A stretch of DNA of 64,000 nt from positions 30,122 through 94,121 of the IMG/VR virus record IMGVR_UViG_3300021255_002723. The stretch is one strand, 5' to 3'. The notes beneath the pieces were generated by a model. That model was not told the origin of the DNA. It searched no databases and worked only from the letters and a program-made list of their open reading frames with translations. This DNA is from a virus. Taxonomy: Duplodnaviria > Caudoviricetes. Every line of letters starts with the position of its first letter. The stretch's first letter is position 1. The position numbers and the translations under genes are program-made. Of the stretch, positions 7,978 through 28,857 are shown in pieces.

Positions 7978-7983
7978 TACAAT

Positions 7984-8015
7984 AAAAAGAGCAACTTTAA
8001 TTAGTTGCTCTTTTT
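7984..8015. terminator. Bidirectional intrinsic terminator; target site of element 1
   Basis: aaaaagagcaact-ttaatt-agttgctcttttt. Confidence 0.8.
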
Positions 8016-8019
8016 ATTT

Positions 8020-8667
8020 GGCAATAACATAGAAGTTGACCCAACAAATCCCATCTTACTGATATTTATTATTAAAAATAACTGTATAAACACATTAAAA
8101 CGATATGAAGAAACTTATAAGATTAACAGAATCTGACTTACATAGAATTGTGATAGAGTCAGTGAAAAGAATCATCAAAGAAAATAATCAAAGGCATAAA
8201 AAAATAATAAGAGAATTCGAAGATGATGAAAGAGACTTTGGACAGTTCGGAGATTATCCACCATCTATGGAAGACATAGAAAAAGAATCAATGATAGATT
8301 GCACATTCTTGATTAATCAAAATGAATTAATATTAGAGCCAAGCGGAAACGTAATTAAAAACGATATACCAGATGATGAGTGGTGCTCAATAGAAATAAC
8401 ACCAGTATTCGAGAAAGATATAAATAGCCTATATGTTGATGACCTAAATTGGGAGTATTGCGAAGTGTCAGCCGAAATGGAAAAATCAATGGAATTGAAA
8501 ACAATGATTGATAACGCAATAGAACAACACTTTGACGAAATATGCCAAAAAATATATAATACATCACCATATTCCTAAATAAATATTTTGTATAACTATA
8601 CAAAAATGAGCAACCTAGCTAGGTTGCTCATTTTTTAGATATATGGGTCAACTTCGATGTTATTGCC
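8020..8667 (+). mobile_element. Non-autonomous IS1595-type cassette (element 1) with one passenger gene
   Basis: TIRs ggcaataacatagaagttgaccca (8020-8043) and tgggtcaacttcgatgttattgcc (8644-8667), 1 mismatch in 24. The 8-bp direct repeat ttttattt lies at 8012-8019 and 8668-8675. Confidence 0.9.
8105..8578 (+). CDS. Passenger gene of element 1; leader-bearing acidic protein
   Basis: MKKLIRLTESDLHRIVIESVKRIIKE; own ATATTTAT motif at 8062 and terminator hairpin at about 8602-8636. Confidence 0.75.
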   Translation: MKKLIRLTESDLHRIVIESVKRIIKENNQRHKKIIREFEDDERDFGQFGDYPPSMEDIEKESMIDCTFLINQNELILEPSGNVIKNDIPDDEWCSIEITPVFEKDINSLYVDDLNWEYCEVSAEMEKSMELKTMIDNAIEQHFDEICQKIYNTSPYS

Positions 8668-8674
8668 TTTTATT

Positions 8675-8905
8675 TTACATTGACATCATCTGTTGTAGCT
8701 TTCTAAGCTCCTTGACTATGCCTCCAAGTTTTTCTATGGTAACTTCATGCCTAGATACGCCACCGCCAAGGATTTGGTTGTACAAACCTTCTAATTGGTC
8801 TGCACACACCCTAACCGTTTCACTGTCATTAGGATTCTTATATTCTTTTAGCATTTCCTTACTCCCTATATATTCATTAATTACTTCATTGATAATATCC
8901 TTCAT
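8675..8905 (-). CDS. Small hypothetical protein (IxE/LxE-rich N-terminus)
   Basis: ORF coupled to the upstream gene. Confidence 0.6.
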   Translation of the reverse strand: MKDIINEVINEYIGSKEMLKEYKNPNDSETVRVCADQLEGLYNQILGGGVSRHEVTIEKLGGIVKELRKLQQMMSM

Positions 8906-8910
8906 AACAG

Positions 8911-10551
8911 TTAATCATCCATTAAAATATCCCTTATTTCAAGTAACTTTGCGATGTCCTTTACAATTGATTCTTTGTTGAACTTCTGTTCTTCCAACTG
9001 TGACTTCAATTGCTTCAACTCTGTATTTTCAGCGTCTTCCTTCAACATCTGGTTTATCTTTTCAATGCATTCATTTTTGAACTTGTTGAAAAGCTTTTCC
9101 TTTCTCTTCTCTGCGATTGGACTTCTGAAATCAGTTATCTGCTGAACGAATGACATTTCAGACTCAGTAAGAGTGTCTTTCAACTTGCTTTCAAAGTTCT
9201 TTACAAGCTTGCTAGGGTCTACTGACTCATTTATGGCATCACCCTTGTGCTTGTTCATATATTCACATATGTTGTTGGTGCTCTCAGCCAATGTTGCAAC
9301 GTTAACTACAGAATTCTTCTTGGTGAAGATGTTATGACCAGACTCATATAAGGTTCTCATTTCATCGTTGATGAAATCAGTAGGAATAATATTGTTCTCT
9401 TTAAGTATGTTCCTAAACTTTGCGTTTGACTTCAACAATGTTTCCCTATTGATTGTAGGTACAACTGCTTCATATAGTTTCTGTGCCAACTCTTCTGGCT
9501 TTAATATATCAGCCATCTTACCACGATAGTTTCTTATTGCATTGTAATAGTTAAACTGACTTGACAAATTGCTGTCTTCTTTGATTAGCTTTACAACATC
9601 CCTAACAACTTTCTTGTTGTTTTTGAACAATTCTGGAAGTCTTTCTTCAAATATATGGTTTAAGATACCAAAGTTATTTGTATTAAGTTCAGCAGCAAGT
9701 TCATTTTCATGTCTACTGTCTTCAACTGCTTCGTCTAGCATCTCTTTCACATAATCATAAGCCTTGAAATCGTTTTTTTGAAGAGCTTCGTTCATTATAC
9801 TGATGTAGTTTGAAAACTCTTCTTGGTATTTATTTTTTTTCATATTAACTTTGTTTTCTTTTATCGTTTTTTTAGGTTTTTTCTCTTCTTGTCTAATCAA
9901 TGAATTATACTGGGCAATTGTCATTCCACCCAATTTGCTTGATTTCTTTTCTAGCGCTGAATTTGGTGTATTATACTGTCTAATAAATTCAACTAATTTT
10001 TCACTCATAGACGGTGAATCTTTTATATCATAATTCATCCATGCTTCATTGCTTGGATTACTAGGTTTATTTGAATTAATGTATTCTCTAACCGTAACAT
10101 TCAAACGTCCATTGTTGCCACTTATAACATAAATGAAATCTAAATACTTATCAACACCATCTATTTTATTTAACAAATCAGCCAATTCTTCTGACGAAAC
10201 AGTATACCATGTTGTTACAACTCTAGGCGTTAAAAATATCCTTCCTTTAAATGCTGCTGTGTCATATACTGCATCTTGCACAGCTCTTACAACATTTTCG
10301 TCAACATATTCACTATATAATGCTTTTCCAAGTATATTGTTAGCCAAATTCTTTGAAATATCCCAATGACAAAGTTTGTCATCATACATAAATTCTTTTT
10401 CGCCATCCAAACTTGTCTGGAAATATCCAAATGAAATTATGTTTGGCTGTGTATAATGAAACGATGCTTTACGCTCGTCTGTGCCATCGTCATATAGATT
10501 AAGTGTATCTGGATTTCCACTAAAATATTCTAGTAAATTATGTTTTTTCAT
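8911..10551 (-). CDS. Two-part head-module protein (N-terminal domain plus helical C-terminal domain)
   Basis: 546-aa ORF next to the portal gene; internal linker KKTIKENKVNMKK. Confidence 0.65.
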   Translation of the reverse strand: MKKHNLLEYFSGNPDTLNLYDDGTDERKASFHYTQPNIISFGYFQTSLDGEKEFMYDDKLCHWDISKNLANNILGKALYSEYVDENVVRAVQDAVYDTAAFKGRIFLTPRVVTTWYTVSSEELADLLNKIDGVDKYLDFIYVISGNNGRLNVTVREYINSNKPSNPSNEAWMNYDIKDSPSMSEKLVEFIRQYNTPNSALEKKSSKLGGMTIAQYNSLIRQEEKKPKKTIKENKVNMKKNKYQEEFSNYISIMNEALQKNDFKAYDYVKEMLDEAVEDSRHENELAAELNTNNFGILNHIFEERLPELFKNNKKVVRDVVKLIKEDSNLSSQFNYYNAIRNYRGKMADILKPEELAQKLYEAVVPTINRETLLKSNAKFRNILKENNIIPTDFINDEMRTLYESGHNIFTKKNSVVNVATLAESTNNICEYMNKHKGDAINESVDPSKLVKNFESKLKDTLTESEMSFVQQITDFRSPIAEKRKEKLFNKFKNECIEKINQMLKEDAENTELKQLKSQLEEQKFNKESIVKDIAKLLEIRDILMDD

Positions 10552-10621
10552 TTAAATACTATTTCTTATAAATATAAATAAATAGCAAAAGGTGCAACAT
10601 TTGAGTCACACCTTTATCATC

Positions 10622-12652
10622 TTATTTTTCATCAACGAATTTGCTCAACGCATCTATCATTCTGTCAAACTCTTCATTGATTAGCAATGACTCGCTGTCA
10701 TAAATGTCAGCCCTCTTGTATTCCGTTTCTTTCGGAGTCGTTTTATGTTCAGTCAATACATCCATGTACTGTTTGAAAAAGTTTTCAGTTATTAGTGGTT
10801 TGTTCTTGCTTACAGACTCCATCGGTGCGTTAGGGTCATTTCCCATATCGGCTGTTGGCATTGAGCCTTCTGTGCCAGCGATGTCTCCTGTATCGTCACT
10901 TCCTGGAGAGCCAAGTCCATCGAGTTCACCTCCTGCGTCCATTGGTGGTGGAGCACCGCCTCCTGGCATGCCTCCTGCCATGCCACCTCCGCCCATTCCA
11001 CCGTCAGCACCCATGCCGCCTTGTCCTTGCTGGTCATCCATATACTCAGCTCCAGGCTCTCCATAGATTCTATCAACGGTGTCGAAGATACCAGTCTTCT
11101 TGATAATTTGAGTAGTCTTTTCAAGTTCAGCAGCGATACCCTTCTCAAGACGTATCTCTTCAAGGTTCTCCTTAATTTCTTTCTCAGACCATTTCATAAT
11201 CTGCTTCAATGCACGAGTCTGTGACATAACTGGTAGACCATTACCTGGGTCTGACACAGCGTCTCTAACGGCATCAATCTTCTTCTGCATGTTTTCAATC
11301 TCAAGTTGTTCTGCTTGTGTTGATGGGTTATTCATTGACAACGTGAAGTTGGTCAATTCATCATTGAAGCCTAACAAGAACAAGTGTATTGATGCAACCT
11401 TAGTCAATTCCATCAAGAACGCTTGCTGTATTCTGTTCACCGTTCTAGTGAAACGAATGTCCATAAGTGCTAGGTTTTTACCTTCACCAACACCCTCTTC
11501 AAAGTTCAAGAATGACTTAGGAATTCTAAGCGCTGTTAACACCTTATTCTGTACGAACTTGATGTCATCCAATGCCGTCATGTTCTGAGCAGCAGAAAGC
11601 GTGTCAATAGGTGTTGGCGCATTTTCATCACGAACAGGTATGAAAATATCTTGGTCAACTGATAATATGTTCTTACGAAGGTCAACTTGACCAGTCATTG
11701 GGTCGATAATTGGAGTTCTCTTAAATTCATTTGCTATTCTTTCAACGTATGCCCCCACATCAGCATCGTCAATAGCACCAACAAATATCTTATATACACG
11801 CCTTTCAATAGAACGCTCAAGACGATAAATAAGCATCATGTCTTCCATCAAGGAAAGCATACGCCAGTGTCTACGAGCAGCGTTGAGGTAACTCACTCCA
11901 TAAGGAAGGTATAGTGAATTGGTAAGCAAACGGAAATGAGCAATCTGCCAGTCACGGAATGGGATTTGAGATTGATTATCATCCAACCAAATGAATTGGG
12001 TTGACATATCGGCATCATCTTTTGTTATGCCGTTAACTGCTATTGAAGCACCTGCTCCATAAGGATTTTGTATTCCGTTTTCAATTCTCTCCACATTAAA
12101 CACTGGAAGCTGTTTCCAACTTTTAACACCATTCTTATGGTCAATGTCCAATAACATAAACTGATTACCATACTTACACATCGCACGTATAATCATTTGA
12201 CCAGTAAGCTGAATATTAAGTCTGTTTACAAACAAATCCTCCAATATGTTTTTAATACGGTCTGATTTTGAATAAACATTAACGACCATACCCTTATCGT
12301 TGGTTATGGTACTCTCTTCAGAAACAATATCCAATGCTGCACCTATCTCTGGAAATGCATCCATCAAGTCAGCATCACGATACATAAGTTTAACGTTGTT
12401 CAGACCAGCATATGCAGTAACGGATAGATTAACGTTTGCCTTAATCCATCTGTTTTTTAAAAACTTATCTTGTTGAAGCTCTAGCTTTTTTTCAATGTAA
12501 TCCTCTTTGTCAGTTGTCTTATACAAGACTTCTTTGTCAGTATGGCTCATGTCATATGTATTGACATGAGGAGTGACAATATCTTGCGGATTCCATTGAC
12601 CTCTTATGGCTTTATCTAGGGCTTGAAATACTGTTGTACTTTTCTTTGCCAT
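10622..12652 (-). CDS. Portal protein, T4 gp20-like
   Basis: LMEDMMLIYRLERSIERRVYKI, IFIPVR and ALRIPKSFL motifs; Gly/Met/Pro-rich tail. Confidence 0.93.
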   Translation of the reverse strand: MAKKSTTVFQALDKAIRGQWNPQDIVTPHVNTYDMSHTDKEVLYKTTDKEDYIEKKLELQQDKFLKNRWIKANVNLSVTAYAGLNNVKLMYRDADLMDAFPEIGAALDIVSEESTITNDKGMVVNVYSKSDRIKNILEDLFVNRLNIQLTGQMIIRAMCKYGNQFMLLDIDHKNGVKSWKQLPVFNVERIENGIQNPYGAGASIAVNGITKDDADMSTQFIWLDDNQSQIPFRDWQIAHFRLLTNSLYLPYGVSYLNAARRHWRMLSLMEDMMLIYRLERSIERRVYKIFVGAIDDADVGAYVERIANEFKRTPIIDPMTGQVDLRKNILSVDQDIFIPVRDENAPTPIDTLSAAQNMTALDDIKFVQNKVLTALRIPKSFLNFEEGVGEGKNLALMDIRFTRTVNRIQQAFLMELTKVASIHLFLLGFNDELTNFTLSMNNPSTQAEQLEIENMQKKIDAVRDAVSDPGNGLPVMSQTRALKQIMKWSEKEIKENLEEIRLEKGIAAELEKTTQIIKKTGIFDTVDRIYGEPGAEYMDDQQGQGGMGADGGMGGGGMAGGMPGGGAPPPMDAGGELDGLGSPGSDDTGDIAGTEGSMPTADMGNDPNAPMESVSKNKPLITENFFKQYMDVLTEHKTTPKETEYKRADIYDSESLLINEEFDRMIDALSKFVDEK

Positions 12653-12705
12653 TATAAACCTTTTCTATAAAAAATAATTATTTTTATATAAATATCAAGA
12701 CTATC

Positions 12706-14583: not shown

Positions 14584-14665
14584 AATTGAAACTTTCTAAA
14601 TTTTAATAAATATAGCGTAACTTTCAAAAGTTATTCATTTATAAATATTTACGAATAAAAAAAAG

Positions 14666-14758
14666 AGCGAATCAGAAAGATTCGCCCATATGTTCGACAA
14701 GTCGATTGGACTTGTTCGTAAATGGTCTGAAATTAGGGTAGGTTTGATTGATGTGTAA
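14666..14758 (+). pseudogene. 3' fragment of IS1595-type transposase
   Basis: Encodes SESERFAHMFDKSIGLVRKWSEIRVGLIDV*, nearly identical to the end of ORF 28404-28613. Confidence 0.85.
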
Positions 14759-14762
14759 TGCA

Positions 14763-15086
14763 TTAACCTTCCATTCCCAAAAACTGGCCACCTTCATCAT
14801 ATTTTTCAAAATTGTTAGTGACCTTTGCGACACTTCTAACCGTTACTAATATTCCTTTAAAATTCAAGTCAATTAATCCTTCTCCTTCACTACCATTTAA
14901 AGCACCAAAAGAAAAACGGTTATCCATATATGGTAGTTTTTTAACATCTTCAAAATCCATACCATCTATTATTTGCTTTGCTTCCATATAGTCTTCGTTA
15001 TGGCCTTCTTTCAATACTCTATTTACAGACTCCTTCACAATTCTATGAAGTTCACTTTCTGTTAATCTAATCAATTTTTTATTCAT
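14763..15086 (-). CDS. Leader-bearing protein (putative internal head protein)
   Basis: MNKKLIRLTESELHRIVKESVNRVLKE; late motif at 15102-15110. Confidence 0.75.
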   Translation of the reverse strand: MNKKLIRLTESELHRIVKESVNRVLKEGHNEDYMEAKQIIDGMDFEDVKKLPYMDNRFSFGALNGSEGEGLIDLNFKGILVTVRSVAKVTNNFEKYDEGGQFLGMEG

Positions 15087-15139
15087 TGTTGTATATTTTT
15101 TTATAAATATTAATTAAAAAGCAAAAATTTGATATTTGC

Positions 15140-16666
15140 TTATATGATGTTCAAATCATATTCAATTTCATCAGTTTCCTCTTCTGTCATTGCTTCAATG
15201 TTAACTATTGGGTCTAAATATCGCAAGCCCAAACAATATGCATTGTTAAAACGCTTGCTATGATGTTCAGTACAATTTTCACTGTTCAATTTATTTCTAT
15301 CTATAGTTACCCTATACACGCAAGGCCAATCATTATTAAAGGCATAATCTAACGCCATTGTTTTGGAATCTGTTAGCCAATATGTGCCATACATTTGAGG
15401 GTCTTCGTTTTTATTCCCACCATGATACAGAATTATTGTGCTAGCATCTTCATCTTCTTCAATTACATCACCATCACCTTCCTCTGAATCTAGTTCATAT
15501 CCATTGGTTTCAGCACCAGTGAAATATGAGTCCTTAATTAAAGATTTGTCAACATTTCTAGCATTTATTCTATTTGTAAACTGTTGGTATCCGTTGTCAT
15601 ATTCGGCTTCCTTCATCAGTTCTCCGATTATTTCGTTTCCCTTTTCAGTTGATGCTAGTATTTCCTTAACCACATCGTTGAACTCATCTATGGAAATCCT
15701 GACAAATGACGTGAACATATAAGGAATCATGTTGGTGTCTTCAACCCTTCCGAAAATCATATCCCAAAGGCCAACGCCAAGCCTTAAATCCCAAGGCTCT
15801 GCAAGCACGAAATCAGCTTTCTTTATGACATGCATTGCATTTTTCTTATCCTTTGGAAGTCCATGTGATGAGAACAATTCAAACATACCTCTTATTGCCT
15901 CTTGGAACAACAAAGGAAATATAATACCTTGAACCTTTATTGTTGTTTTTGAATCACCGACACCCAAATGTGTCTCAACGTAAGAACCTTGCATTGGCTT
16001 GTCATCTGTCATTTTTTCCTTTTTAATGAAAAGCAAATAGTCATTGATTATCCTTATTCTTCTGTACAATCTAGGAAGTTCAGGATTTATCCTATCAATG
16101 TCGCTGATATAAAGTCCTTCAACCTTTGCATATGTGTATGAAGCACCTTGTATTAAAGCATCTATAAATCTTCTCTTTTCAATTGCCTTATTTGAAAACT
16201 CTATATCCTTTATGTCCTTAAACGTGTGGTTTAAATCCACATTTGACTCTGGTCTCAATCTAATTGCGCTCTTAAACTTAATTCTGTCAACCAACTTAAA
16301 AATCAAGTTAATACTTTCCTCTGGAATTGCAAACAACTTGTTCAATGCGTTTTCGCATATCTTCTCCAACGAATCCCTAACAGGCATTTCCAATTCTTTT
16401 GCCCTTTTCAGAAGTTCGCTAAGTTCAGTCATAAGCTCATCCTCAGTACAAGACCCCAATCCGATAGCCTCAATTTCATCGCACACCTCATTATACCTTG
16501 TTTTCAACAAAGTATAATCAAACGGATAGTCACCAACATTAGGAAACGCACCATTATCGCCTAATGACGTACAGTGGGTTTTAACCATCTTATACAAAAA
16601 CCTAGGCAATAGTCTTCCGTTTATAACACTAGATACAGAATTTTCGTTTATGTATATTTTTTTCAT
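15140..16666 (-). CDS. Head-module protein with C-terminal ADP-ribosyltransferase-like domain
   Basis: Leader MKKIYINE; after an acidic linker comes ILYHGG...YWLTDSKTMALDYA...VYRVTI. Confidence 0.55.
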   Translation of the reverse strand: MKKIYINENSVSSVINGRLLPRFLYKMVKTHCTSLGDNGAFPNVGDYPFDYTLLKTRYNEVCDEIEAIGLGSCTEDELMTELSELLKRAKELEMPVRDSLEKICENALNKLFAIPEESINLIFKLVDRIKFKSAIRLRPESNVDLNHTFKDIKDIEFSNKAIEKRRFIDALIQGASYTYAKVEGLYISDIDRINPELPRLYRRIRIINDYLLFIKKEKMTDDKPMQGSYVETHLGVGDSKTTIKVQGIIFPLLFQEAIRGMFELFSSHGLPKDKKNAMHVIKKADFVLAEPWDLRLGVGLWDMIFGRVEDTNMIPYMFTSFVRISIDEFNDVVKEILASTEKGNEIIGELMKEAEYDNGYQQFTNRINARNVDKSLIKDSYFTGAETNGYELDSEEGDGDVIEEDEDASTIILYHGGNKNEDPQMYGTYWLTDSKTMALDYAFNNDWPCVYRVTIDRNKLNSENCTEHHSKRFNNAYCLGLRYLDPIVNIEAMTEEETDEIEYDLNII

Positions 16667-17148
16667 TATAAGCTATTTAAAAACTTGCTTAATTCTTTTT
16701 TTGTGAAAGGAATGGAATTCCTTCTCATTTCATCCATAACCTTTCTAGGCGCAACTGAATTTGTTTCCAAAGAACTAGAATCTGAAGAAGTGTTGGACGT
16801 TGCTGGTGTTAAATCTACTGACATGTCATCATTTTCAGGTTTACTAGCCAAATTTTGAACTCTACTTATTTGCGCACCTGTAGCATTAGCTGGTAAGCTA
16901 ACTTTTAAACCTTCACCAGTATTTGAGTCATTTTGATTATCCATTTGACCCAATTGATTTTGAACAAGTTTTGTGTTAGGATTCTGGTTCATTATTTTAG
17001 ACCCTTGAGCAACAAATTGTCTGATATTTTTAGCATTTGGCGCAGTGGCAACAAAACCTTCTTCGTTTAGCCTTAACTGGCTTTTTGAATAAATTCTACC
17101 TTCACCAAGGTTTACCAATTTATTATTTCTTTTAACCAATATTTTCAT
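16666..17148 (-). CDS. Hypothetical late protein
   Basis: 160-aa ORF with late motif at 17163-17172. Confidence 0.65.
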   Translation of the reverse strand: MKILVKRNNKLVNLGEGRIYSKSQLRLNEEGFVATAPNAKNIRQFVAQGSKIMNQNPNTKLVQNQLGQMDNQNDSNTGEGLKVSLPANATGAQISRVQNLASKPENDDMSVDLTPATSNTSSDSSSLETNSVAPRKVMDEMRRNSIPFTKKELSKFLNSL

Positions 17149-17220
17149 ATTACAAATTTTATATATAAATATTTAGACAAAATAAAAAAGGGATACTTCT
17201 AAGTACCCCTTTTGTTTATT

Positions 17221-19453: not shown

Positions 19454-19526
19454 AATTAATATATTAATTTTTTTTCAAACTTATTTTTAATATAAATATT
19501 TCGTACTAATGAAAAATACTTTATAC

Positions 19527-22500
19527 TTAATAATTTCTAACGTCATCATAAGTGCCCCTTACATTATCAAAGCCCCTATTATCGAATTGTATGTTTCTTC
19601 TGATGTTTGGAGTAAACTTGTCTAACGCCCTAATATATACAACACTCTTAGGCTTCATCTCAATTTCATCCCATTGGACGCATAGGCAATAATTATACCC
19701 TATAAGGTTTGATAGCCAAGTGTCCGTAAAGCACTTATAAAGCTTTCCTTGCTTGTTATCTTCCTTCGACTGCATTACTACACCATTGTTACATATAAAG
19801 TCCTTCAGAACCTTTCTTTCGGTTTCCCAACGCTTTTTATATGGGTTTGAATTACTGCTGCCGTCTAATGCAAACTCTTCCTTTAGAACCGTAATATATT
19901 TCTTTACAGATTCATCAACGTGAATGTTTTTTTCCTTAAACCACTCAATGTTTTTTTGCATATATTTCGCAATTAATGCTTCTTTGTCTTTAACAATAGA
20001 ATGATTAAGCAATTCAAAATTAAACAATACGTATTCAGTATCAAACTCAAAACCATCAATACCTAATGATAGGTATAATTTTGACAACTGTTTATCAGGG
20101 TTTCTATCCGAATACCACAACAAAGGTATGTGGTTATTTAAATAGAAATAAGTTAAATCATTTTCATCACTTTCCGAAATAACTTGAATAATGGCATTTA
20201 GTAAATCTTTGTCAACCGTATTATCATATTCTTCAATCATTGAAGAAATTCTGTCATATTCTCTGTTGTTTCTTGCATTATCAAGTTTATTTTGTAACAA
20301 ATAATATTCTTTTTGTTTGTCCAAGAAAATATTATTGTCTTTGTTAATCTTATCCCTTAAATTAATAATATTAAAACCATTTATATTTGCTATTATATAA
20401 TGTCCATCTGTATAAGTGGTATATTTTTCGCATTTATATGCGTGGGCTGTAAAATATATTCCATAGCCGTATGTTCCTCTGCTTCCACCTTTTATCTTTG
20501 TTGGGTCAACAGTATCCCACTCTGTTCCATTTCCATCTTCTCCTGTGCCATGAAAAACATATCCATCTTCTGCCATTTCGCCAATAACCTTATATCTAGC
20601 CATTTGGTTATTCCTGAAAATGTCGTATCTAGCACCTTCCGTTACAGACTCTGTAATTGAATTCGTCTTGTCATAAACAGCATTCGAAAGCTTCCAAAGA
20701 CGGTCAAGATAGCCTGTTCTTCTCAGTATCTTATACACAATGTTTCCGCTTCCGCTTTCGCCATGCTTCTCAAGACTGCTCTTGCGCATTTCCTTTACCT
20801 TTTTCCAAAGATAATCTGCATCATCACCCATCTGTTCTATTTCATAAGAATCATCCGTAGCTGCAAGAGCGTCATACATATCGTCAATGATTGTCATGAT
20901 TTTTGCTGCCTTGTCCTTAATTGAAAACTTGTTCAACCTTATTGGTTTAATATCATTAGGATTTGGCTCTTTTATCCAATCATTTTCCTCCAAGTCATAA
21001 ATGCCATTTGATTCTGGCATTTCACCCAAATTCTGAACATAAAGCTCAACTTGGTATCCCATTATCTGAAGACCTTTATGCTCGTTGTTCCACTCATTCT
21101 TCTTTGCATCTAAATAATCATGGACAAACTCTGTCTTTTCATCAATTTCATTGAAATCAACAATAAGATGTAAATCAATGTCAGAATATTGAGACCAATT
21201 GAAATTACAGATTGAACCTGTTAATATTATACCACTAGGCTCAACCCAAGTCAAGTTTACATATTTCCAAAAATCGTCTGCAATGTCTAATAGTTTAAGC
21301 CTAATTCTTGAATCTAGCTTGCCATCTGGTTTCCATATATTTGGAACTAATTCATGTTTTTTCTTGAATGAAGATAAATCTATTTCAGAACTATCTACCT
21401 CAAAATCAAAATTCTCTTTAATTATTTTTAGTTGGTTTTCAGAAACTACTATTTTCTTATTTTTATTCTTTGACTCAATTAACGATAAATTACCGCTAGT
21501 GTCAAGTTTATATACATTACCATTAAGTTGAACCACAGCAAAACCTTCACGGAAATTACCAACATAATCAAACCATTGGTTGCTCAACAATCTACCTTCT
21601 TGGTTGATGAAATTCCACTTGTTATTAAGACTAACCTTAGCAAAACCTTCACGGAAATTACTGATAAAATCAAACCATTGGTCACTTAAAAGCCTACCTT
21701 CTTGATTGATGAAATTCCATTTGCCATTAAGTTCGACACTAGCAAAACCTTCACGGAAATTACCAACATAATCAAACCATTGGTTGCTCAACAATCTACC
21801 TTCTTGGTTGATGAAATTCCACTTGTTATTAAGACTAACCCTAGTAAAACCTTCGCTGAAATTACCAACAGTATCAAACCATTGGTTACTCAACAATCTA
21901 CCTTCTTGATTGATGAAATTCCATTTGCCATTAAGTTCGACACTAGCAAAACCTTCACTGAAATAACCAACATAGTCAAATACATCGTGTATATCTTCTC
22001 CATTAGCAAGACGTTGCATAACATTGGCTATAAGTTCATTCCACTTATTGTTTGGCTTAAACGCCTCAAAGAAATTCATACCAATTACTTGACTCACTTC
22101 CTTTGCATTCATAATACTGTCATCACCACCATTATCGTGATTCCAACGACAAGTGCAAGTGTTTAACATGCCATTTTCATTAACGCTTACGGCTATCATA
22201 GACAAGCCGTACTCATCCAATGGACAACCTTCAGATGGTGCTTCCTCAACATTCTCAAAACCATTTCTTAAGCAAAAATAAAATTGGTTGATACCGTCAC
22301 TAGTGTATGAATTAAACATATTATTATCGTGCGTTACACACCAAGATACGTAATCACCGTATTCCTCTGCTTGTTCAAAAGAGTCAATTCTAACAATCTC
22401 ATAATCAGAAGGGGTGTTAAACGCCATCTTGCCAATTTCAGCCTTCTCAGCCTCAAGATTGTCACTCATTGCTTTTGCAAACCTTTGAATAAGTTCTTGA

Positions 22501-24998
22501 CAAGACATTCCATTAAGATTCCTATCATACTCATTGATATGAGCATCTGAAGCCACTAACTTAAGTGTTGAATTAAGATTTCCAATGTCATTGGCAGTTC
22601 TTAATTCACCGTCACAGAACATCCTTGTCACGCCAAGGATGAACTTGCTGCCTTGAGGTGTTCTTAACGTTGGAATGTCGTTTCTGAGTTTAATCCTTAT
22701 AAATTTATCAGCTTCTTGTTCATTATAGTTAAGTCTTTGCATTACAAGTTTTTTTGCAGCTGCAATGGACTTTGATTCTTGCGACTCTATAATTAGATGA
22801 GAATTATTCATGTTTTTATTTTCATATTGCACGTTTCCCATTGGTTTTATCCCATCCTCATAATATCTCCTTATATCTGCAACAACAGCTTGAGGTTTAG
22901 CATCTGAGTATGAAACTGAATGCAATGTATTTCCTTTGTCATCGGTAAAATCTATGTCAACGTCAACAGCATTTCTAATAAAATCTCGTATTACATAGAA
23001 CTGTTCATTTGTAGGCTCTTTAGTCATGTCAAGAATTCCAGTGTTAACGTCACATCTTATTGCACCGTGATTCATAAAGTCAACAACATAGTTATAGCGA
23101 TACTCGTCATTCCATATTTTTATCCCATTCTGTTTATAAACAGCTGCTATTTGTCTATGGTCTGTTTCTCTATATCCATCACTTCCAAAATTCAACAATT
23201 TCCCATCTGGAAGAATATATCCAGCTTGGTTCAATCTGCTAGTTAAACCAAACTCATCTATGGCCAAAGAAATAATATCATAATTTTCTTTTGGCTGTTC
23301 TAAATCTTTTCCGTTTTCTTCTTTGTTTTCTTCGTCAGTCCAAAGTTTAGTAATTTTATGGAGTCTATCACTTAATGCTGTATATATCTTAATATCTTTT
23401 GGGTCTACACTTATTTCTGGGTGCGTCTTTTTCATCCAAGAGCTTATATACCAACCATCAAACCCATATTTTTCTTTTCCTTGTTTCAAAAAATATTGTA
23501 GGCCGTAATTTGCCTTGTTAAACAAATCATCATATTTATTTTCTATTATTTGCGCTTTATTTTTTTTACTTTCGTGGAAACGATTTCCTTGAGGTTTTAT
23601 CCCTTCATCAAAATATGCTAATATATCGTTTATAATCCTATTAGGGTTTGCATTTTTGTATTCTGCACCACATATCATTTCTGCATAAAATCTCCCCTCT
23701 TTATATGAGGAAATGTCCAAAAATAGACTTCCATCAAATTCTATGATATGTTTTTTCAATGGTTTTATTTGCTCTTTCGTTGGTTTTTTAGTTAATTCTA
23801 TTCCTCCAAGGTTGCCAATTCTTATATTCCCTAAATTCAAGAATTTACCAACAGTCATGCCATTTATTTTAGATATTTCACTATGGTCTCTGAAAGTTAT
23901 AACATCACCATTTGTTAAAATATATGAACTATTCCCTTTGGTTTGTATTTTTTTGGCAATTGCATTAATATCCATAACTGCGCCAATTTCAGATGAATCG
24001 AAACTAGCAGATTCATTGATATTTAAACCATCTAATAGATTTTTATTCTTTGACTCATAATATTCATTTCCTTGTGGCTTAATTCCTTCTGAATAAAACC
24101 TGTCAATTTCTCCCATGACATATCTCCAATCTGGACGTATATAGTGCGCCCCAATACTACTTTTTCCTTGGTATATGTCCAAGTATAGTTCCTCATCTGC
24201 ATAACAAGCAATCGCTCTTCTTAACACGTCTCTTTGCTCACTTGTTGGCTCGCTACCAATATCAATTGACTGGGGCAATACCCTAATATTACCCATTCTT
24301 ATAAAATCAAATTTATTGTTTATGTTTGGTATCCTACATATTTCATTATGTTCTGATTCAGTGTATACCACAACACCATTTGTCAAGATAAAACCTCTAC
24401 AATCCTTGAAATAGTCACCATGCCTTAATAATTTCATGGCCATATTGTTGATGCTATCTTTGTTGCTCACATCCACGTCATTGTCAGAATACAAGTTAAC
24501 AGTTTCAAATGAACCACTGCCATCATTCATGCAAGTTGTTAAAATCTCGTTTTGCATCTTACTGCCAAACATATCTTCTAACGTATCATAATCCACATAG
24601 TCAGTACCGCAAGTATGATAAGTTTCATTATCTAGATATTCTAATTCAAACTCAACATTATCATTAATGTATTCCATCAATGACTCTTGCGTGTTCTCAT
24701 ACTCAGCATCTTGTAGCCATTCTTGATATTCATCTTCGTCAAAATCCCAAGAATAGTTAACTGCGCCAACTTCAGATGAATCGAAACTAGCAGATTCATT
24801 GATGTGATAACCGTTACCGCCTACTGGGGGATTATCACTTTCAGCACCAATTTCATATTCATCAATTTCTGGTGCCGCTTCGTTCACATTTACAGAAACG
24901 TCATTATGGCTGACACCATCAGTGCCAACCATAACTTCGTTTAATCTATTTTTAATCATTATTAAACTGCCTTCATTAAATCTAACAGTCTTACTCAT
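19527..24998 (-). CDS. Multidomain polyprotein: three copies of a repeated domain, WG repeats, nucleotidyltransferase, ART-like domain
   Basis: Three x(Y/F)ILxxG...H...G.IR...PT.EQ...GIKP.GN units; KWNFINQEG repeats; LTGS..NFNWSQYSDIDLH; FHGT...YGYGIYFT; domains separated by INES/IIES/LIES/ITES linkers. Confidence 0.8.
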   Translation of the reverse strand: MSKTVRFNEGSLIMIKNRLNEVMVGTDGVSHNDVSVNVNEAAPEIDEYEIGAESDNPPVGGNGYHINESASFDSSEVGAVNYSWDFDEDEYQEWLQDAEYENTQESLMEYINDNVEFELEYLDNETYHTCGTDYVDYDTLEDMFGSKMQNEILTTCMNDGSGSFETVNLYSDNDVDVSNKDSINNMAMKLLRHGDYFKDCRGFILTNGVVVYTESEHNEICRIPNINNKFDFIRMGNIRVLPQSIDIGSEPTSEQRDVLRRAIACYADEELYLDIYQGKSSIGAHYIRPDWRYVMGEIDRFYSEGIKPQGNEYYESKNKNLLDGLNINESASFDSSEIGAVMDINAIAKKIQTKGNSSYILTNGDVITFRDHSEISKINGMTVGKFLNLGNIRIGNLGGIELTKKPTKEQIKPLKKHIIEFDGSLFLDISSYKEGRFYAEMICGAEYKNANPNRIINDILAYFDEGIKPQGNRFHESKKNKAQIIENKYDDLFNKANYGLQYFLKQGKEKYGFDGWYISSWMKKTHPEISVDPKDIKIYTALSDRLHKITKLWTDEENKEENGKDLEQPKENYDIISLAIDEFGLTSRLNQAGYILPDGKLLNFGSDGYRETDHRQIAAVYKQNGIKIWNDEYRYNYVVDFMNHGAIRCDVNTGILDMTKEPTNEQFYVIRDFIRNAVDVDIDFTDDKGNTLHSVSYSDAKPQAVVADIRRYYEDGIKPMGNVQYENKNMNNSHLIIESQESKSIAAAKKLVMQRLNYNEQEADKFIRIKLRNDIPTLRTPQGSKFILGVTRMFCDGELRTANDIGNLNSTLKLVASDAHINEYDRNLNGMSCQELIQRFAKAMSDNLEAEKAEIGKMAFNTPSDYEIVRIDSFEQAEEYGDYVSWCVTHDNNMFNSYTSDGINQFYFCLRNGFENVEEAPSEGCPLDEYGLSMIAVSVNENGMLNTCTCRWNHDNGGDDSIMNAKEVSQVIGMNFFEAFKPNNKWNELIANVMQRLANGEDIHDVFDYVGYFSEGFASVELNGKWNFINQEGRLLSNQWFDTVGNFSEGFTRVSLNNKWNFINQEGRLLSNQWFDYVGNFREGFASVELNGKWNFINQEGRLLSDQWFDFISNFREGFAKVSLNNKWNFINQEGRLLSNQWFDYVGNFREGFAVVQLNGNVYKLDTSGNLSLIESKNKNKKIVVSENQLKIIKENFDFEVDSSEIDLSSFKKKHELVPNIWKPDGKLDSRIRLKLLDIADDFWKYVNLTWVEPSGIILTGSICNFNWSQYSDIDLHLIVDFNEIDEKTEFVHDYLDAKKNEWNNEHKGLQIMGYQVELYVQNLGEMPESNGIYDLEENDWIKEPNPNDIKPIRLNKFSIKDKAAKIMTIIDDMYDALAATDDSYEIEQMGDDADYLWKKVKEMRKSSLEKHGESGSGNIVYKILRRTGYLDRLWKLSNAVYDKTNSITESVTEGARYDIFRNNQMARYKVIGEMAEDGYVFHGTGEDGNGTEWDTVDPTKIKGGSRGTYGYGIYFTAHAYKCEKYTTYTDGHYIIANINGFNIINLRDKINKDNNIFLDKQKEYYLLQNKLDNARNNREYDRISSMIEEYDNTVDKDLLNAIIQVISESDENDLTYFYLNNHIPLLWYSDRNPDKQLSKLYLSLGIDGFEFDTEYVLFNFELLNHSIVKDKEALIAKYMQKNIEWFKEKNIHVDESVKKYITVLKEEFALDGSSNSNPYKKRWETERKVLKDFICNNGVVMQSKEDNKQGKLYKCFTDTWLSNLIGYNYCLCVQWDEIEMKPKSVVYIRALDKFTPNIRRNIQFDNRGFDNVRGTYDDVRNY
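21536..21990 (-). repeat. Tandem 102-bp WG-type repeats (about 4.5 copies, alternating A/B)
   Basis: Units encode F.EGFA.V.LN.KWNFINQEGRLLS.QWFD; alternate units are nearly identical at DNA level. Confidence 0.9.
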
Positions 24999-25021
24999 TA
25001 ATAAAATTTAAAACACAAAAA

Positions 25022-25342
25022 TTAGTTTTCACAATCATATGCCCACTCATATGTGCCATTACCGCCACACTTACAAATCTGCTGTCTAAGGTCAGTATAG
25101 GTAGCACCGTTCTCACCAATGAACTGAGGAATTTCCTTATACTTGTTAGCATTTTCAGTTGGAAGAGCTTTTTGGTATCCAGTGATGTTCCAATCATTAG
25201 ATGAGAATGTCTTCATACCATTGTCACTGTAGCCATCCTTATCCAATGCGGTCTTGTATGAGTCTACGTCTGTATAAAGCAATTGGTTATCCATATCATA
25301 ACCATAACCTTCATACATATAATCTAAAATGTTAGTCACCAT
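25022..25342 (-). CDS. Hypothetical late protein
   Basis: ORF with highly-expressed-type codons and a late motif at 25377. Confidence 0.65.
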   Translation of the reverse strand: MVTNILDYMYEGYGYDMDNQLLYTDVDSYKTALDKDGYSDNGMKTFSSNDWNITGYQKALPTENANKYKEIPQFIGENGATYTDLRQQICKCGGNGTYEWAYDCEN

Positions 25343-25405
25343 AATTTAAAATATTTTATATTTAATTATTTTATTCTATAAATATTATTCAATAAAAAAA
25401 AGGTA

Positions 25406-27028
25406 TCAAACATTTGATACCTTTTGTTGTTGTTTAATAAAGTTTTCTATCTCTCTATCATTTTTCCTTGCTAATGCCATATAATCATAATCACCTTCTT
25501 TATTAAGTTTAGCAGTATTCACAGTATTATATCTGACAGCCTCCCAATAATCCAACTCTTTATATTCCATATCAATATCCCAAGATTTCAAATATTCATC
25601 ATCTAAACCAATTTTCTTTAACGTTTCATAAACTTGAGCTATTGTACCTACTCTGAATAACTTATACAGATATTGGAACATCGAATTATAGTTTTTGCTT
25701 CTACTTCTATTATATTTTCCTTCGTTATCGTACATTATCTCCCCAGCAAAAGAGTCTGCATATGATTTGCAATATTCATCATCCCATCCCATTGCATCAG
25801 AAAACTTGTCTTTCTGTGGGTATAAAGATATAACACCTCTTCTTACTATCAAATAGGCGCATTTTTTGTTTGTATCAATTCTATCATAGACATTCCCTCT
25901 CTGAAGGTCGTAATATTCATTTTCCATATTTTTTTTGATTAAATACGCCTCCCTAAATGAATTTGCACCAATGGACAAGCAATAGTCCGTCAGCATTTTT
26001 GATATTTTATATGTATATTCGTTTGGCTCATCAGATAAGTATCTTCTAACAGCATCTAGTTTTTCGGCAATACCTTGTATTCCTCCCCAAGTTTTACTAG
26101 GAGCAGCCATTATAGTTCCTATTTTATTTTTGAATTCGCTAAGTTCATATTTTGTTAAATACTCCATTGTTTTTTTAGGGAAATTTTTGCCATCAAAATC
26201 GTGATTTGCATATGCTATAAAACAAATCACTGCTTCAAGACAATCATACACCTTTCTGTAATATAATCTATCTTCAGAAACATACCCTTCTCCATATTCA
26301 ACTTTATCGTTTGCATCTTTACCATTTGGGTTATTAAATTCTTTTTCTGAATCAAAAATCTTTACATATCTACTGCCTAATAGTGTACGATATAAAAATG
26401 ATTGAGCCAACGCCATTTTATTTGGGTCTTTTTCAAAATCAACAATTAATACATCAACTGATTTAATATATCTATGCGCGTTTGGAATCATTGGTTCATA
26501 TGAAAAAATCCTGTCCTCAGACTCATTAGAGATATGATGTTGTACATCATCATAGAAATTATGGTTTATCCAATTTTGTATTTCTTCTTCTGAAGCATTC
26601 GGATGCTCTTTTTTCCATCTGTTAAGCCAAAATACATGCGCTTTGTCATTTGGTGCTGCGTTTCCATTTAATTCCGCTTGTTTCGTGTAGCCATACTTGT
26701 CGGTAAATGTTCCTCCTCCCCAGTAATTGACTTGTTTTCCCTTATATTTAGTCGCTAGAGCGCTTCCATCAAGAACAATCCTAACCCCTCCTTGACTGAA
26801 TTTTTTGGAATAGCCAAATTGACTATTCCCAATTCTAGTGCAAGAAAGGTAGAATTTTCTCTTTCTATCATAGTTATCAGCATCTTTTGCATATGCGGAT
26901 TGTAAATATATTTTATCATCCTTACATATCTTATAGCCATGATTTAATGACGTAAAATGATATAATATATTACTTAATCCTTCAGTCAATAAATGCTCTT
27001 TAGACTCTTTAATATATATTTTTTTCAT
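25406..27028 (-). CDS. Leader-bearing protein with N-terminal ART-like domain
   Basis: MKKIYIKESKEHLLTE, then LYHFT...YLSCTR...ESEDRI. Confidence 0.55.
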   Translation of the reverse strand: MKKIYIKESKEHLLTEGLSNILYHFTSLNHGYKICKDDKIYLQSAYAKDADNYDRKRKFYLSCTRIGNSQFGYSKKFSQGGVRIVLDGSALATKYKGKQVNYWGGGTFTDKYGYTKQAELNGNAAPNDKAHVFWLNRWKKEHPNASEEEIQNWINHNFYDDVQHHISNESEDRIFSYEPMIPNAHRYIKSVDVLIVDFEKDPNKMALAQSFLYRTLLGSRYVKIFDSEKEFNNPNGKDANDKVEYGEGYVSEDRLYYRKVYDCLEAVICFIAYANHDFDGKNFPKKTMEYLTKYELSEFKNKIGTIMAAPSKTWGGIQGIAEKLDAVRRYLSDEPNEYTYKISKMLTDYCLSIGANSFREAYLIKKNMENEYYDLQRGNVYDRIDTNKKCAYLIVRRGVISLYPQKDKFSDAMGWDDEYCKSYADSFAGEIMYDNEGKYNRSRSKNYNSMFQYLYKLFRVGTIAQVYETLKKIGLDDEYLKSWDIDMEYKELDYWEAVRYNTVNTAKLNKEGDYDYMALARKNDREIENFIKQQQKVSNV

Positions 27029-27102
27029 AACTCATACGCAATATATATACATAAATAGTTAGCAATCAATATTTATTATAAATAAAATACACATAAAACG
27101 CT

Positions 27103-27201
27103 ATGATATATTTAAAGAAATTTGAAAATCACAAACAATATGAAGACTATGTGGCAAGTGGATTTTTACACAATTTTTCTGTTGTTCACATACCAAAATA
27201 A
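27103..27201 (+). CDS. 32-aa late ORF or remnant (MIYLKKFEN...)
   Basis: Late motif at about 27069; terminator directly after. Confidence 0.4.
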   Translation: MIYLKKFENHKQYEDYVASGFLHNFSVVHIPK

Positions 27202-27236
27202 TAAAAGGTACTGCATTTGTTACAGTACCTTTTATT
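27201..27236. terminator. Intrinsic terminator; target site of element 2
   Basis: ataaaaggtactg-catttgtta-cagtaccttttat. Confidence 0.8.
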
Positions 27237-27305
27237 ATGGCAATAACATCGCAGTTGACCCAAATATCTAAAAAATGAGCAGCCTAACCAGGTTGCTCAT
27301 TTCTA

Positions 27306-27887
27306 TTAATGTGGTTTAGAAGGTGTTGAACCATTCGTATTGATATTGGTTTCATAGTCTTCTCTTGCATAGAGATAGTTAGAAACGAAGGTCAGCACTC
27401 TTTTTATCTGTTCTTCATTATGGGGTAGTAAAGTATGCAACTTTCTACTACGTGTGGTTTTGTCAGAGTAAGACACTCTATAAAAGTCTTGTGTATTGAA
27501 GTTATATTCGATTGCTCCGATACCAAATGGCCTTAACGACACCGTTAATTGTCCGTGCAATACTATTCTTTCATTGTCTATGTACTTTACATCAGTGAAA
27601 CGCAAATCGACTGGGTACGACTGATTTGTCTTCTCATTGTGTTCAACAAACTCAAGGGTCAAGTTTGGAAAGTTGTCGTGTATTGCAAGTGACAACGCTT
27701 TCATTGTTAAGTTTTCGCTACCTCCCATCTTTGTTCTTGCATTAGGATTTCTACTATTCATATAATCTTATTGTGCATTGTAGTTCGCACCGTGTGTTAG
27801 TGCAGCGCCACGATAGCCTATTTCTTTGATTACTTGTTTTACTATGTTATGTATATCATTCTCTGTTAATCTGATTATCTGTTTCAT
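27306..27887 (-). pseudogene. Passenger gene with leader, split by an in-frame TAA
   Basis: MKQIIRLTENDIHNIVKQVIKE...NAQ*DYMNSRNP; TAA at 27768-27770; a 151-aa ORF remains downstream. Confidence 0.7.
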
Positions 27888-28004
27888 TCTGATACGATAT
27901 TTACCATAAATATCTTCTCGCTGCAAAATTACATTCAATTTCTGATAAAAACAAATTCTACGTGATATTTATTAGAAAAATAACGAATTAATACGTATTA
28001 TAAT

Positions 28005-28400
28005 ATGAATAAGAAACTTATAAGACTAACAGAATCAGACCTTCATAGAATTGTAAAAGAGTCTGTACAGAGGGTTCTAAATGAAGCTTATGACTATAGT
28101 TTGCGCAATACATTGCCTAGAGATATAAACGGCATACCATTACGTGTCGGAGATAAAGTTACTTACTATAATAGAACTGGAAACTATGATACAATACCTT
28201 ATAGGATTGGTGGTACAATAGAGAATATTGAAAAAACTGATGAGGGGGATGGGTTTGTTGTTACTATACAAACAAAAAAGCGTGGAACAATCTCTACAGA
28301 ATGGGCAAAGCACGATGTTGAAAAGGATAATAGCAGTGGCGTAAGTCATCATACTGATGATTTGACAAGACAAATAACGCATGTCTTATTTCCACATTAA
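28005..28400 (+). CDS. Passenger gene; leader plus small beta-barrel-like domain
   Basis: MNKKLIRLTESDLHRIVKESVQRVLNE then DINGIPLRVGDKVTY. Confidence 0.75.
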   Translation: MNKKLIRLTESDLHRIVKESVQRVLNEAYDYSLRNTLPRDINGIPLRVGDKVTYYNRTGNYDTIPYRIGGTIENIEKTDEGDGFVVTIQTKKRGTISTEWAKHDVEKDNSSGVSHHTDDLTRQITHVLFPH

Positions 28401-28403
28401 ACA

Positions 28404-28613
28404 CTAAGCAGCAACAAGACCAACTCTAATCTCAGACCACTTTCTAACAAGTCCAATTGACTTGTCGAACATATGGGCGAATCTCTCTGATTCGCTCATT
28501 TTTCTTGTGTTCCAACGATACACAGCCTCGTCAATGTACTGCTGCAAATGCTCATCAGAGGTGAAATACGAGGTGAGGGAGATAACGCTGTTGAATTTCT
28601 TGAAATCTATCAT
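28404..28613 (-). pseudogene. Internally deleted IS1595-family transposase
   Basis: N-terminus MIDFKKFNSVISLTSYFTSDE joined in frame to the IS1595 C-terminal motif HLQQYIDEAVYRWNTR; TATATTTGTA box at 28642-28651. Confidence 0.8.
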
Positions 28614-28857
28614 AACACTTGGTTTTTTATTTAAATTCTAATACAAATATAGGATTTTTCAACTCCCAAGTGCTGGCTCTTATACATATAAATTTACGAA
28701 ATTGAATATATTCTGAATAGTCAATTTACAAAGTAAATTGTTAACATCAATAATATGGTAAAAAACGAATACAAAAATAATTCCTCAGAATCACGAGGAT
28801 TCCAAGGAATTATTAAAAAGTTGGGTCAACTTCTATGTTATTGCCTTTATTATTATT

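Follow-up and report, generated by a model that had tools for sequence, protein, structure and literature searches.

The window analysed here, a stretch of 64,000 nucleotides of phage DNA, corresponds to bases 30122-94121 of a 94,121-base virus contig of IMG/VR (IMGVR_UViG_3300021255_002723). It holds three traces of one 'transporter' insertion sequence (IS) of the IS1595 family, namely two elements with both ends (elements 1 and 2) and a relic of the transposase without ends. The genes that accompany these traces begin with a leader module of about 27 residues, M(N)KKLIRLTESDLHRIVKESVNRVL(N/K)E, which is followed by a hypervariable body. The genome had been described in an earlier note, made from the sequence alone, as that of a jumbo phage; this rests on the size of its relatives (about 334-413 kb); the record itself is 94 kb long and 30% complete according to CheckV.

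The relatives referred to as L0xx or L1xx are loci fetched from viral contigs, bacterial assemblies or metagenome contigs; L048-L094 are 47 loci fetched via neighbouring phage genes, and L095-L101 are viral-contig loci with full-length transposase matches. Hairpins were scored by their folding energy (in kcal/mol) and a z score. The features of the two elements, and the gene that precedes element 1, are the following (aa, amino acids; ORF, open reading frame).

7651-7977 (+): resident leader gene (108 aa), not part of any element; element 1 is inserted in its terminator
8012-8019: left target duplication of element 1, TTTTATTT, which is the T-run of the terminator hairpin of 7651-7977; single copy in L049
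8020-8043 (+): end 'L' (transposase-side) of element 1, 0 mismatches to the end pattern
8063-8069 (+): promoter-like TATTTAT motif, 5' of the element 1 cargo; the motif also precedes head genes
8105-8578 (+): cargo of element 1, ORF of 157 aa that begins with MKKLIRLTESDLHRIV; body without known family
8602-8635 (+): subterminal hairpin and T-run of element 1, -21.4 kcal/mol, z -7.0
8644-8667 (-): end 'R' of element 1, 0 mismatches to the pattern
8668-8675: right target duplication of element 1, TTTTATTT, read directly
27231-27238: left target duplication of element 2, TTTATTAT, within the A/T tract of a two-way terminator hairpin (27205-27238)
27239-27262 (+): end 'R' of element 2, 0 mismatches to the pattern
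27271-27304 (-): subterminal hairpin and T-run of element 2, -15.8 kcal/mol, z -4.0
27306-27887 (-): cargo A of element 2, leader gene (MKQIIRLTENDIHNIV...) with an in-frame stop at 27768-27770; TATTTAT at 27906-27912 (-)
28005-28400 (+): cargo B of element 2, 131 aa, begins with MNKKLIRLTESDLHRIV and converges on the transposase remnant; TATTTAT at 27966-27972
28404-28613 (-): transposase remnant, 69 aa, residues 1-21 fused in frame to about 280-325 of 325
28822-28845 (-): end 'L' of element 2, 0 mismatches to the pattern
28846-28853: right target duplication of element 2, TTTATTAT, read directly

Two insertions in terminators of phage genes

The four ends match a common pattern, GGCAATAACATNGNAGTTGACCCA, without any mismatch. 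This is far beyond chance, since the pattern has no match in 100 dinucleotide-preserving shuffles, which were used as a control. The search of the whole 94,121-base record that the earlier note had recommended returns exactly these four matches, all belonging to elements 1 and 2. The 24-bp inverted ends pair at 23 of 24 positions in element 1 and at 22 of 24 in element 2. The other structural claims of the note, a perfect 8-bp target duplication for each element and a subterminal hairpin in each of them, are also borne out: the duplications are read directly from the sequence, and the hairpins fold at the positions listed above.

Element 1 is 648 bp long, and contains no transposase sequence at all; one cargo gene has been kept. 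Its hairpin looks like an intrinsic terminator that closes the cargo gene before the end of the element. Element 2 (1607 bp) has two cargo genes and a transposase with an internal deletion. The in-frame stop of cargo A splits this gene into a leader piece of 39 aa and a body of 151 aa. The orthologue of cargo A in L026 is uninterrupted (193 aa), and its body is 98% identical. The claim that three passengers have the leader and different bodies holds as far as the three leader genes are concerned; the 151-aa ORF, on the contrary, is not a separate gene with its own leader but a part of the single, stop-split leader gene 27306-27887 (-), as the intact orthologue in L026 indicates.

The transposase remnant of element 2 aligns to residues 1-32 and 275-325 of the intact protein, with a tail that is 98% identical. 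The two halves are fused in frame at 'SDE', a stretch that is present twice in the intact protein, which indicates that the 256 codons between the two repeats were lost. The part that encodes the zinc ribbon (PF12760) is deleted, and the Pfam match of the remnant is to the end of DDE_Tnp_IS1595 (E 0.014, below the cut-off). The 307 bases inside the 'L' end are 92.8% identical to a Prevotella chromosomal copy.

Both insertions avoid genes, and each of them lies in the A/T tract of a strong hairpin of a neighbouring phage gene: the terminator hairpin of the resident gene 7651-7977 (7981-8018, -19.8 kcal/mol, z -8.3) in the case of element 1, and the two-way terminator hairpin at 27198-27238 (z -7.2) in the case of element 2. 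The alleles without insertion that the earlier note had suggested looking for do exist in the case of element 1: in L049 the flanks are identical and are joined via a single TTTTATTT. L049 is a close relative, whose homologues of the 546-aa (over the part compared), 76-aa and 279-aa proteins are 96, 95 and 97% identical, respectively.

Regarding element 2, the scan of viral contigs with its 540-aa neighbour returned no relative, and that of metagenome contigs returned two, L127 and L128. Neither is the empty site: in L127 the 191-aa and 540-aa genes are adjacent without the element, yet the intergenic DNA differs, and L128 diverges upstream of 27144. Six relatives found via the 191-aa gene are uninformative, as they have neither element 2 nor the 540-aa gene. 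None of the contigs of four runs that were aligned to the window joins across element 2. A contig from another sample of the same study (X2) spans its left junction without any difference. An assembly artefact is ruled out by this junction contig, by the empty-site allele of element 1, and by the fact that the same architecture recurs in many independent assemblies. Both elements entered the phage DNA by transposition into A/T tracts of phage terminators.

Relatives of the elements in phages and in Prevotella

The assignment to the IS1595 family, also proposed in the earlier note, is supported by intact relatives which have identical ends and encode Zn_ribbon_IS1595 and DDE_Tnp_IS1595: in one intact relative, the ISXO2-like DDE domain (PF12762) is recognised with an E value of 1.8e-44 (151.9 bits, cut-off 27) and the N-terminal zinc ribbon (PF12760) with 1.2e-9 (38.4 bits, cut-off 25.4). 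Target duplications of 8 bp are a feature of the IS1595 family. In our census of 18 copies with both ends, perfect 8-bp duplications, all A/T-rich, are present in 16 copies, and L096 and L098b have none. The DDE domain, the zinc ribbon, the inverted ends, the 8-bp duplication and the filled and empty alleles of element 1 are all as in this family. Elements 1 and 2 are non-autonomous derivatives of an IS1595-family IS of 1.5-2.7 kb.

The same ends were found in 11 viral-contig loci and in 32 loci of bacterial assemblies, nearly all of which are from rumen Prevotella or Prevotellaceae. Four bacterial end pairs, 2.07-2.74 kb apart, enclose the 325-aa ORF, which is frameshifted in one pair. The neighbours of these four paired copies, in metagenome-assembled genomes (MAGs) of Prevotella, are genes for peptidase S46, GH2, GH26, and M19 and M28 peptidases, which shows that these copies are chromosomal. 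The transposase is present in four of the five bacterial genomes checked, at one locus each.

Scanning viral contigs with the transposase gave 20 loci, of which seven are full-length (L095-L101), some on contigs of 135-335 kb, and ten keep only the last 24-72 residues. The best match among GenBank phage records is 39% identical. The contig of L100 also encodes a 70%-identical homologue of the 546-aa protein of the window, so that intact copies occur in this very phage lineage; one contig of 135.8 kb contains an intact IS and two small elements. Intact copies are therefore present both in related big phages and in Prevotella chromosomes, and the IS is apparently active in this big rumen phage lineage. 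The near-identity of parts of the element in phage and host chromosomes suggests that the phage shuttles an IS, and provides a host assignment, Prevotella, for this uncultured phage group. We also note a 6.8-kb contig labelled as part of an Alphaproteobacteria MAG (L021), which encodes a TerL 52% identical to that of the window; an end, a transposase tail and a leader gene are next to the TerL gene. This contig is probably of phage origin and was binned with a bacterial MAG.

The usual cargo of the IS is a leader gene of the MNKKLIRLTESDLHRIV type. The earlier note had asked what fraction of passengers have the leader: such a gene is present in 16 of the 18 two-ended elements, usually converging on the transposase, which is a strong enrichment over the whole record, where 7 of approximately 99 predicted genes are strict leader ORFs. 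Among intact copies, in which the leader gene abuts or overlaps the stop codon of the transposase, the smallest (L095, 1513 bp) encodes just the transposase and a 102-aa leader protein. The bodies that follow the leader are unrelated from copy to copy. The two elements with no leader gene, L036_37 and L008, both have perfect duplications. The five bacterial genomes checked for the transposase contain four leader hits, three of them inside the IS. In L036_37, an intact IS from a Prevotella MAG, the sole passenger encodes 245 aa without the leader, and its start resembles that of the 241-aa ORF with which the phage record opens (39% identical over 74 residues); here the IS would have picked up a further gene of the phage type.

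Leader genes, their spread and the phage head

Three of the seven strict leader ORFs of the 94-kb record are inside the two elements. As for the other four, one is next to a transposase tail, two are neighbours located outside the window, and the last is the resident gene 7651-7977, whose orthologue in L049 is only 51% identical, as compared to 95-97% for the flanks; the terminator is conserved too. The two adjacent genes (G000:C1:14728-16249; L115 1728-3250) encode 126 aa and 296 aa. The former is followed by a tail-type hairpin (17-bp arms, 100% complementary), and its protein has a second, partial leader. A solo variant end (GGTAATAATATAG...GGCAC) lies 20 bp upstream of the 296-aa gene, facing away from it.

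The leader ORF that abuts a transposase tail belongs to a third cassette.

14648-14749 (+): transposase tail relic, residues 290-323, 82% identity in alignment to the intact transposase, without ends
14763-15086 (-): third leader gene, ORF of 107 aa, MNKKLIRLTESELHRIV; TATTTAT upstream
14692-15444: 753-bp indel relative to the closest relative, L116, without ends and without duplication

The proximity of a third leader gene to the tail of a transposase, remarked upon in the earlier note, is thus confirmed. The 753-bp stretch contains the C-terminal extension of a 508-aa protein, the leader gene and the tail. L116 comes from the same close relative as L049 (TerL 99.7% identical; 508-aa protein 98.5% identical over residues 1-406). 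One boundary of the indel is inside a tail-type hairpin; in L116 this hairpin is present too, and terminates the shorter gene. No leader gene was found at this position in 11 relatives. The absence of ends and of a duplication indicates that this cassette was moved by recombination, and not by transposition.

Read on the opposite strand, the final codons of the transposase gene form a hairpin (9-11-bp stem) followed by a T-run. These tail hairpins, at 28473-28499 (z -3.7) and 14665-14687 (z -3.8), are each just downstream of a converging leader gene. The hairpin may serve as the terminator of the converging passenger, which would explain that tails of about 30 codons persist beside leader genes after the IS has been lost. 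Since tail-type hairpins terminate genes where no IS remains, as in L116, the IS has left many marks.

The earlier note had gone further, and proposed that the phage uses the transposon as a device for swapping genes. In this form the idea is not supported: intact single copies with the same type of cargo are also found in Prevotella chromosomes, the third cassette of the window was moved by recombination, and the many leader genes in L048-L094, which often lie between homologues of the 546-aa gene and of the 158-aa gene, are not accompanied by ends (a single end, with 3 mismatches, was found in these loci). Most leader genes of the related phages are outside any transposon, so that the IS is just one of several vehicles. 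In three DNA runs, each from a different study, the leader (27992-28178) and the tail (28366-28552) of element 2 stand out by a 60- to 100-fold rise in summed contig depth, from about 15 to about 730-1470, and the contigs break at 28063-28067 and 28405-28438 with many different continuations. These observations imply that in the rumen one and the same leader and tail flank many different bodies. The more frequent process thus seems to be the exchange of cassettes by homologous recombination, to which the IS adds new sites and the passage between phage and host DNA.

Neither Pfam nor PHROGs gives a family for any cargo, and the search of the Protein Atlas with the 157-aa cargo of element 1 returned only structures with TM scores of 0.28-0.40, and no usable feature hit. 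In the databases, 471 proteins match the 131-aa cargo B (E <= 0.001); with the exception of four close homologues, the hits listed mostly cover little beyond the first 21-31% of the query. None of the 471 has a Pfam domain, and few have a source name, which is mostly 'hypothetical protein'. A 267-base contig from an RNA-library run (X15) covers the body of cargo B at a depth of 3; it could result from DNA carry-over and we do not count it as expression.

Regarding the leader itself, the mean column entropy over 77 leader genes is 0.87, 0.54 and 1.49 at codon positions 1, 2 and 3, respectively, a pattern that reveals selection on the peptide and not merely on the DNA. That the leader is a pure DNA recombination handle is ruled out, since third codon positions vary freely. 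The motif (L/I)-x-E occurs at leader residues 8-10 and about 25-27. The segment MNKKLIRLTE has 10 residues and terminates in LTE; the conserved block also terminates in L-x-E, and [LI]xE is found in exactly that register in 78 of 107 distinct leaders. Several single ORFs contain the leader twice, each time with its methionine: P0006, P0007, P0009, P0012, P0015, P0021, P0040 and P0074 have two leaders, or a leader split by an insert, and likewise P0004. These ORFs resemble polyproteins, or cassettes that were fused. A homologue of the window gene 14763-15086 makes up the second half of P0074.

A TATTTAT motif is present 25-45 nucleotides upstream of the genes for the capsid protein, protease, portal and terminase, of most other head genes, and of leader genes. 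It precedes all three element-borne leader genes, in agreement with the late-type motif that the earlier note had attributed to the passengers. Over all, 48 of 98 distinct leader genes have it, including copies on bacterial contigs (L016, L026, L027, L042 and L043). Examples in the form (A)TATTTAT(A), which is the reverse complement of TATAAATA-like sequences, are found in the window at 3452-3530, 5130-5212, 10552-10621, 12653-12705 and 14584-14660. The motif could be read by the product of a sigma-factor gene at 55880-56569 (phrog_351).

The head module encodes the enzyme that would process the leaders.

5213-5950 (+): prohead protease of the T4 gp21 type (Peptidase_S77, E 2.7e-24; phrog_207)

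The same genome encodes a Gp23-type capsid protein (E 4.7e-73), and the portal and large terminase genes are near that of the protease. In T4, gp21 cuts after L/I-X-E, and the first 10 N-terminal residues of the internal protein IPIII suffice for packaging, according to an excerpt of PMC9026906; the internal proteins of T-even phages are described in PMC3012670 as highly diverse, with the targeting sequence alone being conserved. In 19 of the 99 proteins predicted from the record, an [LI]xE ends at residue 6-11, as compared to a background of 8.5% that was determined from 6-residue windows elsewhere in the same proteins (binomial p 6e-4). Among these 19 proteins, 16 have a second site at residues 14-32, and many are encoded around the protease, portal and terminase genes.

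Taken together, the [LI]xE pattern, the gp21-type protease, the Gp23-type capsid protein and the TATTTAT motif make it plausible that the leader is a head-targeting propeptide which is cut by the protease, and this is our best reading of the leader. The odds are roughly even that the leader is indeed cut and that the cargo is packaged and perhaps injected.

We observed in addition that several unrelated proteins start with a looser version of the leader, MKK-(I/L)-x-(I/L)-x-E, with a second (I/L)-x-E 8-17 residues on, to which the above enrichment (19 of 99 against 8.5%) refers; they are encoded at 5947-7138, 15140-16666, 25406-27028, 36621-36974 and 53203-53709. A protein of 1823 aa encoded in the head module (19527-24998, -), which has WG_beta_rep repeats (PF14903) and a PHROG-36119 domain, also has an N-terminus of this type (…RFNE…RLNE) and may be a giant packaged protein.

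Possible explanations and comparison with known systems

The explanation that we favor, with a probability of about 0.6, is that a transporter-type IS1595 element carries leader cassettes whose leader is a head-targeting propeptide. The autonomous form consists of the 24-bp ends, the 325-aa transposase and one to three passengers, and makes 8-bp duplications in A/T-rich DNA. For their movement, the two elements of the window would depend in trans on an intact copy that resides in the host or in the genome of a co-resident phage. A gp21-type protease would cut the leader after LTE (residue 10 or so) and after L-x-E (residue 27 or so), and the cargo would then behave like the internal proteins of T4, being packaged and perhaps injected. 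The bodies would be swapped by homologous recombination, with the conserved promoter-plus-leader and the tail or terminator as the two borders, and the IS would let the cassette land at new sites and cross between phage and host DNA.

We hold as doubtful a more ambitious version, in which the IS travels in both directions between big rumen phages and their Prevotella hosts, and the head-targeted cargo, driven by late promoters, diversifies the proteins that are injected. The single chromosomal copies would in that case be no dead ends, and might be a community reservoir, from which the phages re-acquire injected effectors by transposition or by leader/tail recombination. Alternatively, they might encode 'Trojan' proteins of the host, which would be induced by phage late transcription and packaged into the progeny.

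Several observations weigh against the favored explanation, or against parts of it. The intact transposase was not found in the 94-kb record, and a strict empty site of element 2 was found neither in viral contigs nor in metagenome contigs nor in the four runs. Neither a tail nor a tail-type hairpin follows 56 of the 83 leader genes of viral loci; those that have a tail, 21 in number, come mostly from loci fetched with the transposase as the query, so that their share is biased upward. Regarding the leader, the first L-T-E is partly imposed by the search pattern, which makes its count (104 of 107) circular. The second L-x-E could be a mere part of a conserved helix, and the 16 conserved residues between the putative cut sites exceed what the cut sites need. 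It is also unexpected for a strictly N-terminal signal that 18 of the 107 distinct leaders are internal (more than 60 open codons upstream). The leader has no match in 50,697 GenBank phage records, hence no cultured carrier, and the same leader genes, with the motif, also occur in bacterial chromosomes, where there is no prohead. Last, the AlphaFold2 model of cargo B is unusable (mean predicted local distance difference test score, pLDDT, 45).

Among the alternatives, the one closest to the favored explanation is that the leader genes form a native multigene family driven by recombination, like the hyperplastic internal-protein loci of T-even phages, and that the IS is a parasite which picked up a cassette by accident and plays little role in exchange. 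The two differ solely in the weight given to the IS. The abundance of leader genes in the 47 neighbour-fetched loci, where a single imperfect end was seen, the divergence of the 7651-7977 orthologue between well-conserved flanks, the displacement of the third cassette without ends and the existence of chimeric proteins with partial or repeated leaders would all be expected of such a family. It does not account so easily for the fact that three of the seven strict leader ORFs of the record are inside two-ended elements, and that further ones abut a tail, have a tail-type hairpin, or neighbour a solo variant end 20 bp upstream, or that tail-type hairpins serve as terminators even without the IS (L116). 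We consider this alternative unlikely.

Less probable in our opinion is that the leader is a conserved amphipathic helix, involved for example in the binding of a common partner from the host or the phage, in oligomerisation or in the binding of nucleic acids, and is neither cut nor a packaging signal. A conserved segment of about 27 aa, when 10 residues are sufficient in T4 (excerpt of PMC9026906), would be consistent with this idea, and so would a low-confidence model that puts residues 10-27 in a helix, and the internal copies of the leader. However, two (L/I)-x-E motifs delimit the block and the phage has a gp21-type protease, the leader genes share their upstream motif with head genes, and the same N-terminal pattern is enriched across the proteins of the head module. 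We find it more improbable still that the insertions are those of a selfish IS or of miniature inverted-repeat transposable elements (MITEs), with the leader protein being an accessory or a regulator of the transposon (a partner of the transposase, for example) that has nothing to do with heads. The frequency of the leader gene in the elements (16 of 18), its fixed position in intact copies, convergent and abutting, the minimal composition of L095 and the retention of the leader gene in bacterial chromosomal copies speak in favor of an accessory function. Against it, the bodies are unrelated among copies, contrary to what is expected of a conserved accessory protein; L036_37 and L008 have no leader gene and yet have perfect duplications; and related phages are rich in leader genes that have no ends nearby. 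That leader genes bear the upstream motif of head genes, and that looser leaders head many proteins around the protease and portal genes, also argue against this last alternative and for the head-targeting reading.

The forms of IS1595 that carry passenger genes have been named 'transporter IS' (Siguier, Gagnevin and Chandler 2009, as reported in an excerpt of PMC3129680). The element described here is like them in that it combines a zinc ribbon and an ISXO2-like DDE domain, ends that start with GG, 8-bp duplications and passengers unrelated to transposition, and in that deletion derivatives and solo ends are found. It differs from them in three respects: its usual passenger is of the phage type, with the motif of head genes and a conserved leader; it is found in big phage genomes of the lytic type as well as in the host chromosome; and the 3' end of the transposase would double as the terminator of the passenger. 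Like MITEs, elements 1 and 2 have the ends of an autonomous partner, no working transposase, target duplications and probably movement in trans. Unlike non-coding MITEs, they keep a coding cargo with its own promoter-like motif and terminator, which makes them closer to mobile insertion cassettes.

The comparison with IPI, IPII and IPIII of T4 rests on the protease of the gp21 family, the Gp23-type capsid protein, the short leader ending in (L/I)-x-E and the diverse bodies (PMC9026906 and PMC3012670), and the leader genes, like the genes of the T4 internal proteins, are apparently expressed late. Unlike that of the T4 proteins, the leader here has about 27 residues and, by its sequence pattern, two candidate cut sites, and may recur in one ORF. 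Leader genes can also be transposon-borne, which those of T4 are not. A cargo of the internal-protein type on an IS would thus combine two known kinds, the IS1595 transporter and, by analogy, the T4-like internal proteins.

The common view is that phages tolerate few insertion sequences and carry them poorly (Leclercq, Gilbert and Cordaux 2012, PMC3429520, excerpt). In line with the view expressed in that excerpt, the insertions described here avoid genes and sit in the A/T tracts of terminators; the presence of several copies per genome in this lineage is contrary to it. We found no description of an IS with such a cargo in phages in the literature searched, whose coverage does not include subscription journals. 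The cargo belongs to a very large unnamed protein family, and does not consist of resistance or metabolic genes; the members of this family have nothing in common but the leader, whose sequence agrees with the cleavage rule of the phage's head protease. Should the leader target proteins to the head, it would label a whole set of candidate packaged or injected proteins, likely counter-defence factors, in the dark rumen virome, transposition would be a new route for reshuffling such arsenals, and the leader could be a portable tag for loading proteins into these capsids.

Last, we note some further features of the window. Its G+C content is about 0.33-0.37, except at 56001-60000 where it reaches 0.45-0.46; this stretch includes the sigma-factor gene and a second helicase gene (58217-59737), which belongs to the same PHROG as 44381-46168. 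Finally, at 33355-35871, 39948-40835 and 29384-30571 the window has auxiliary genes of the kind usual in very large phages, for an ATP-dependent protease of 838 aa (phrog_4871), a tRNA-His guanylyltransferase and a thymidylate synthase that contains a long insert.

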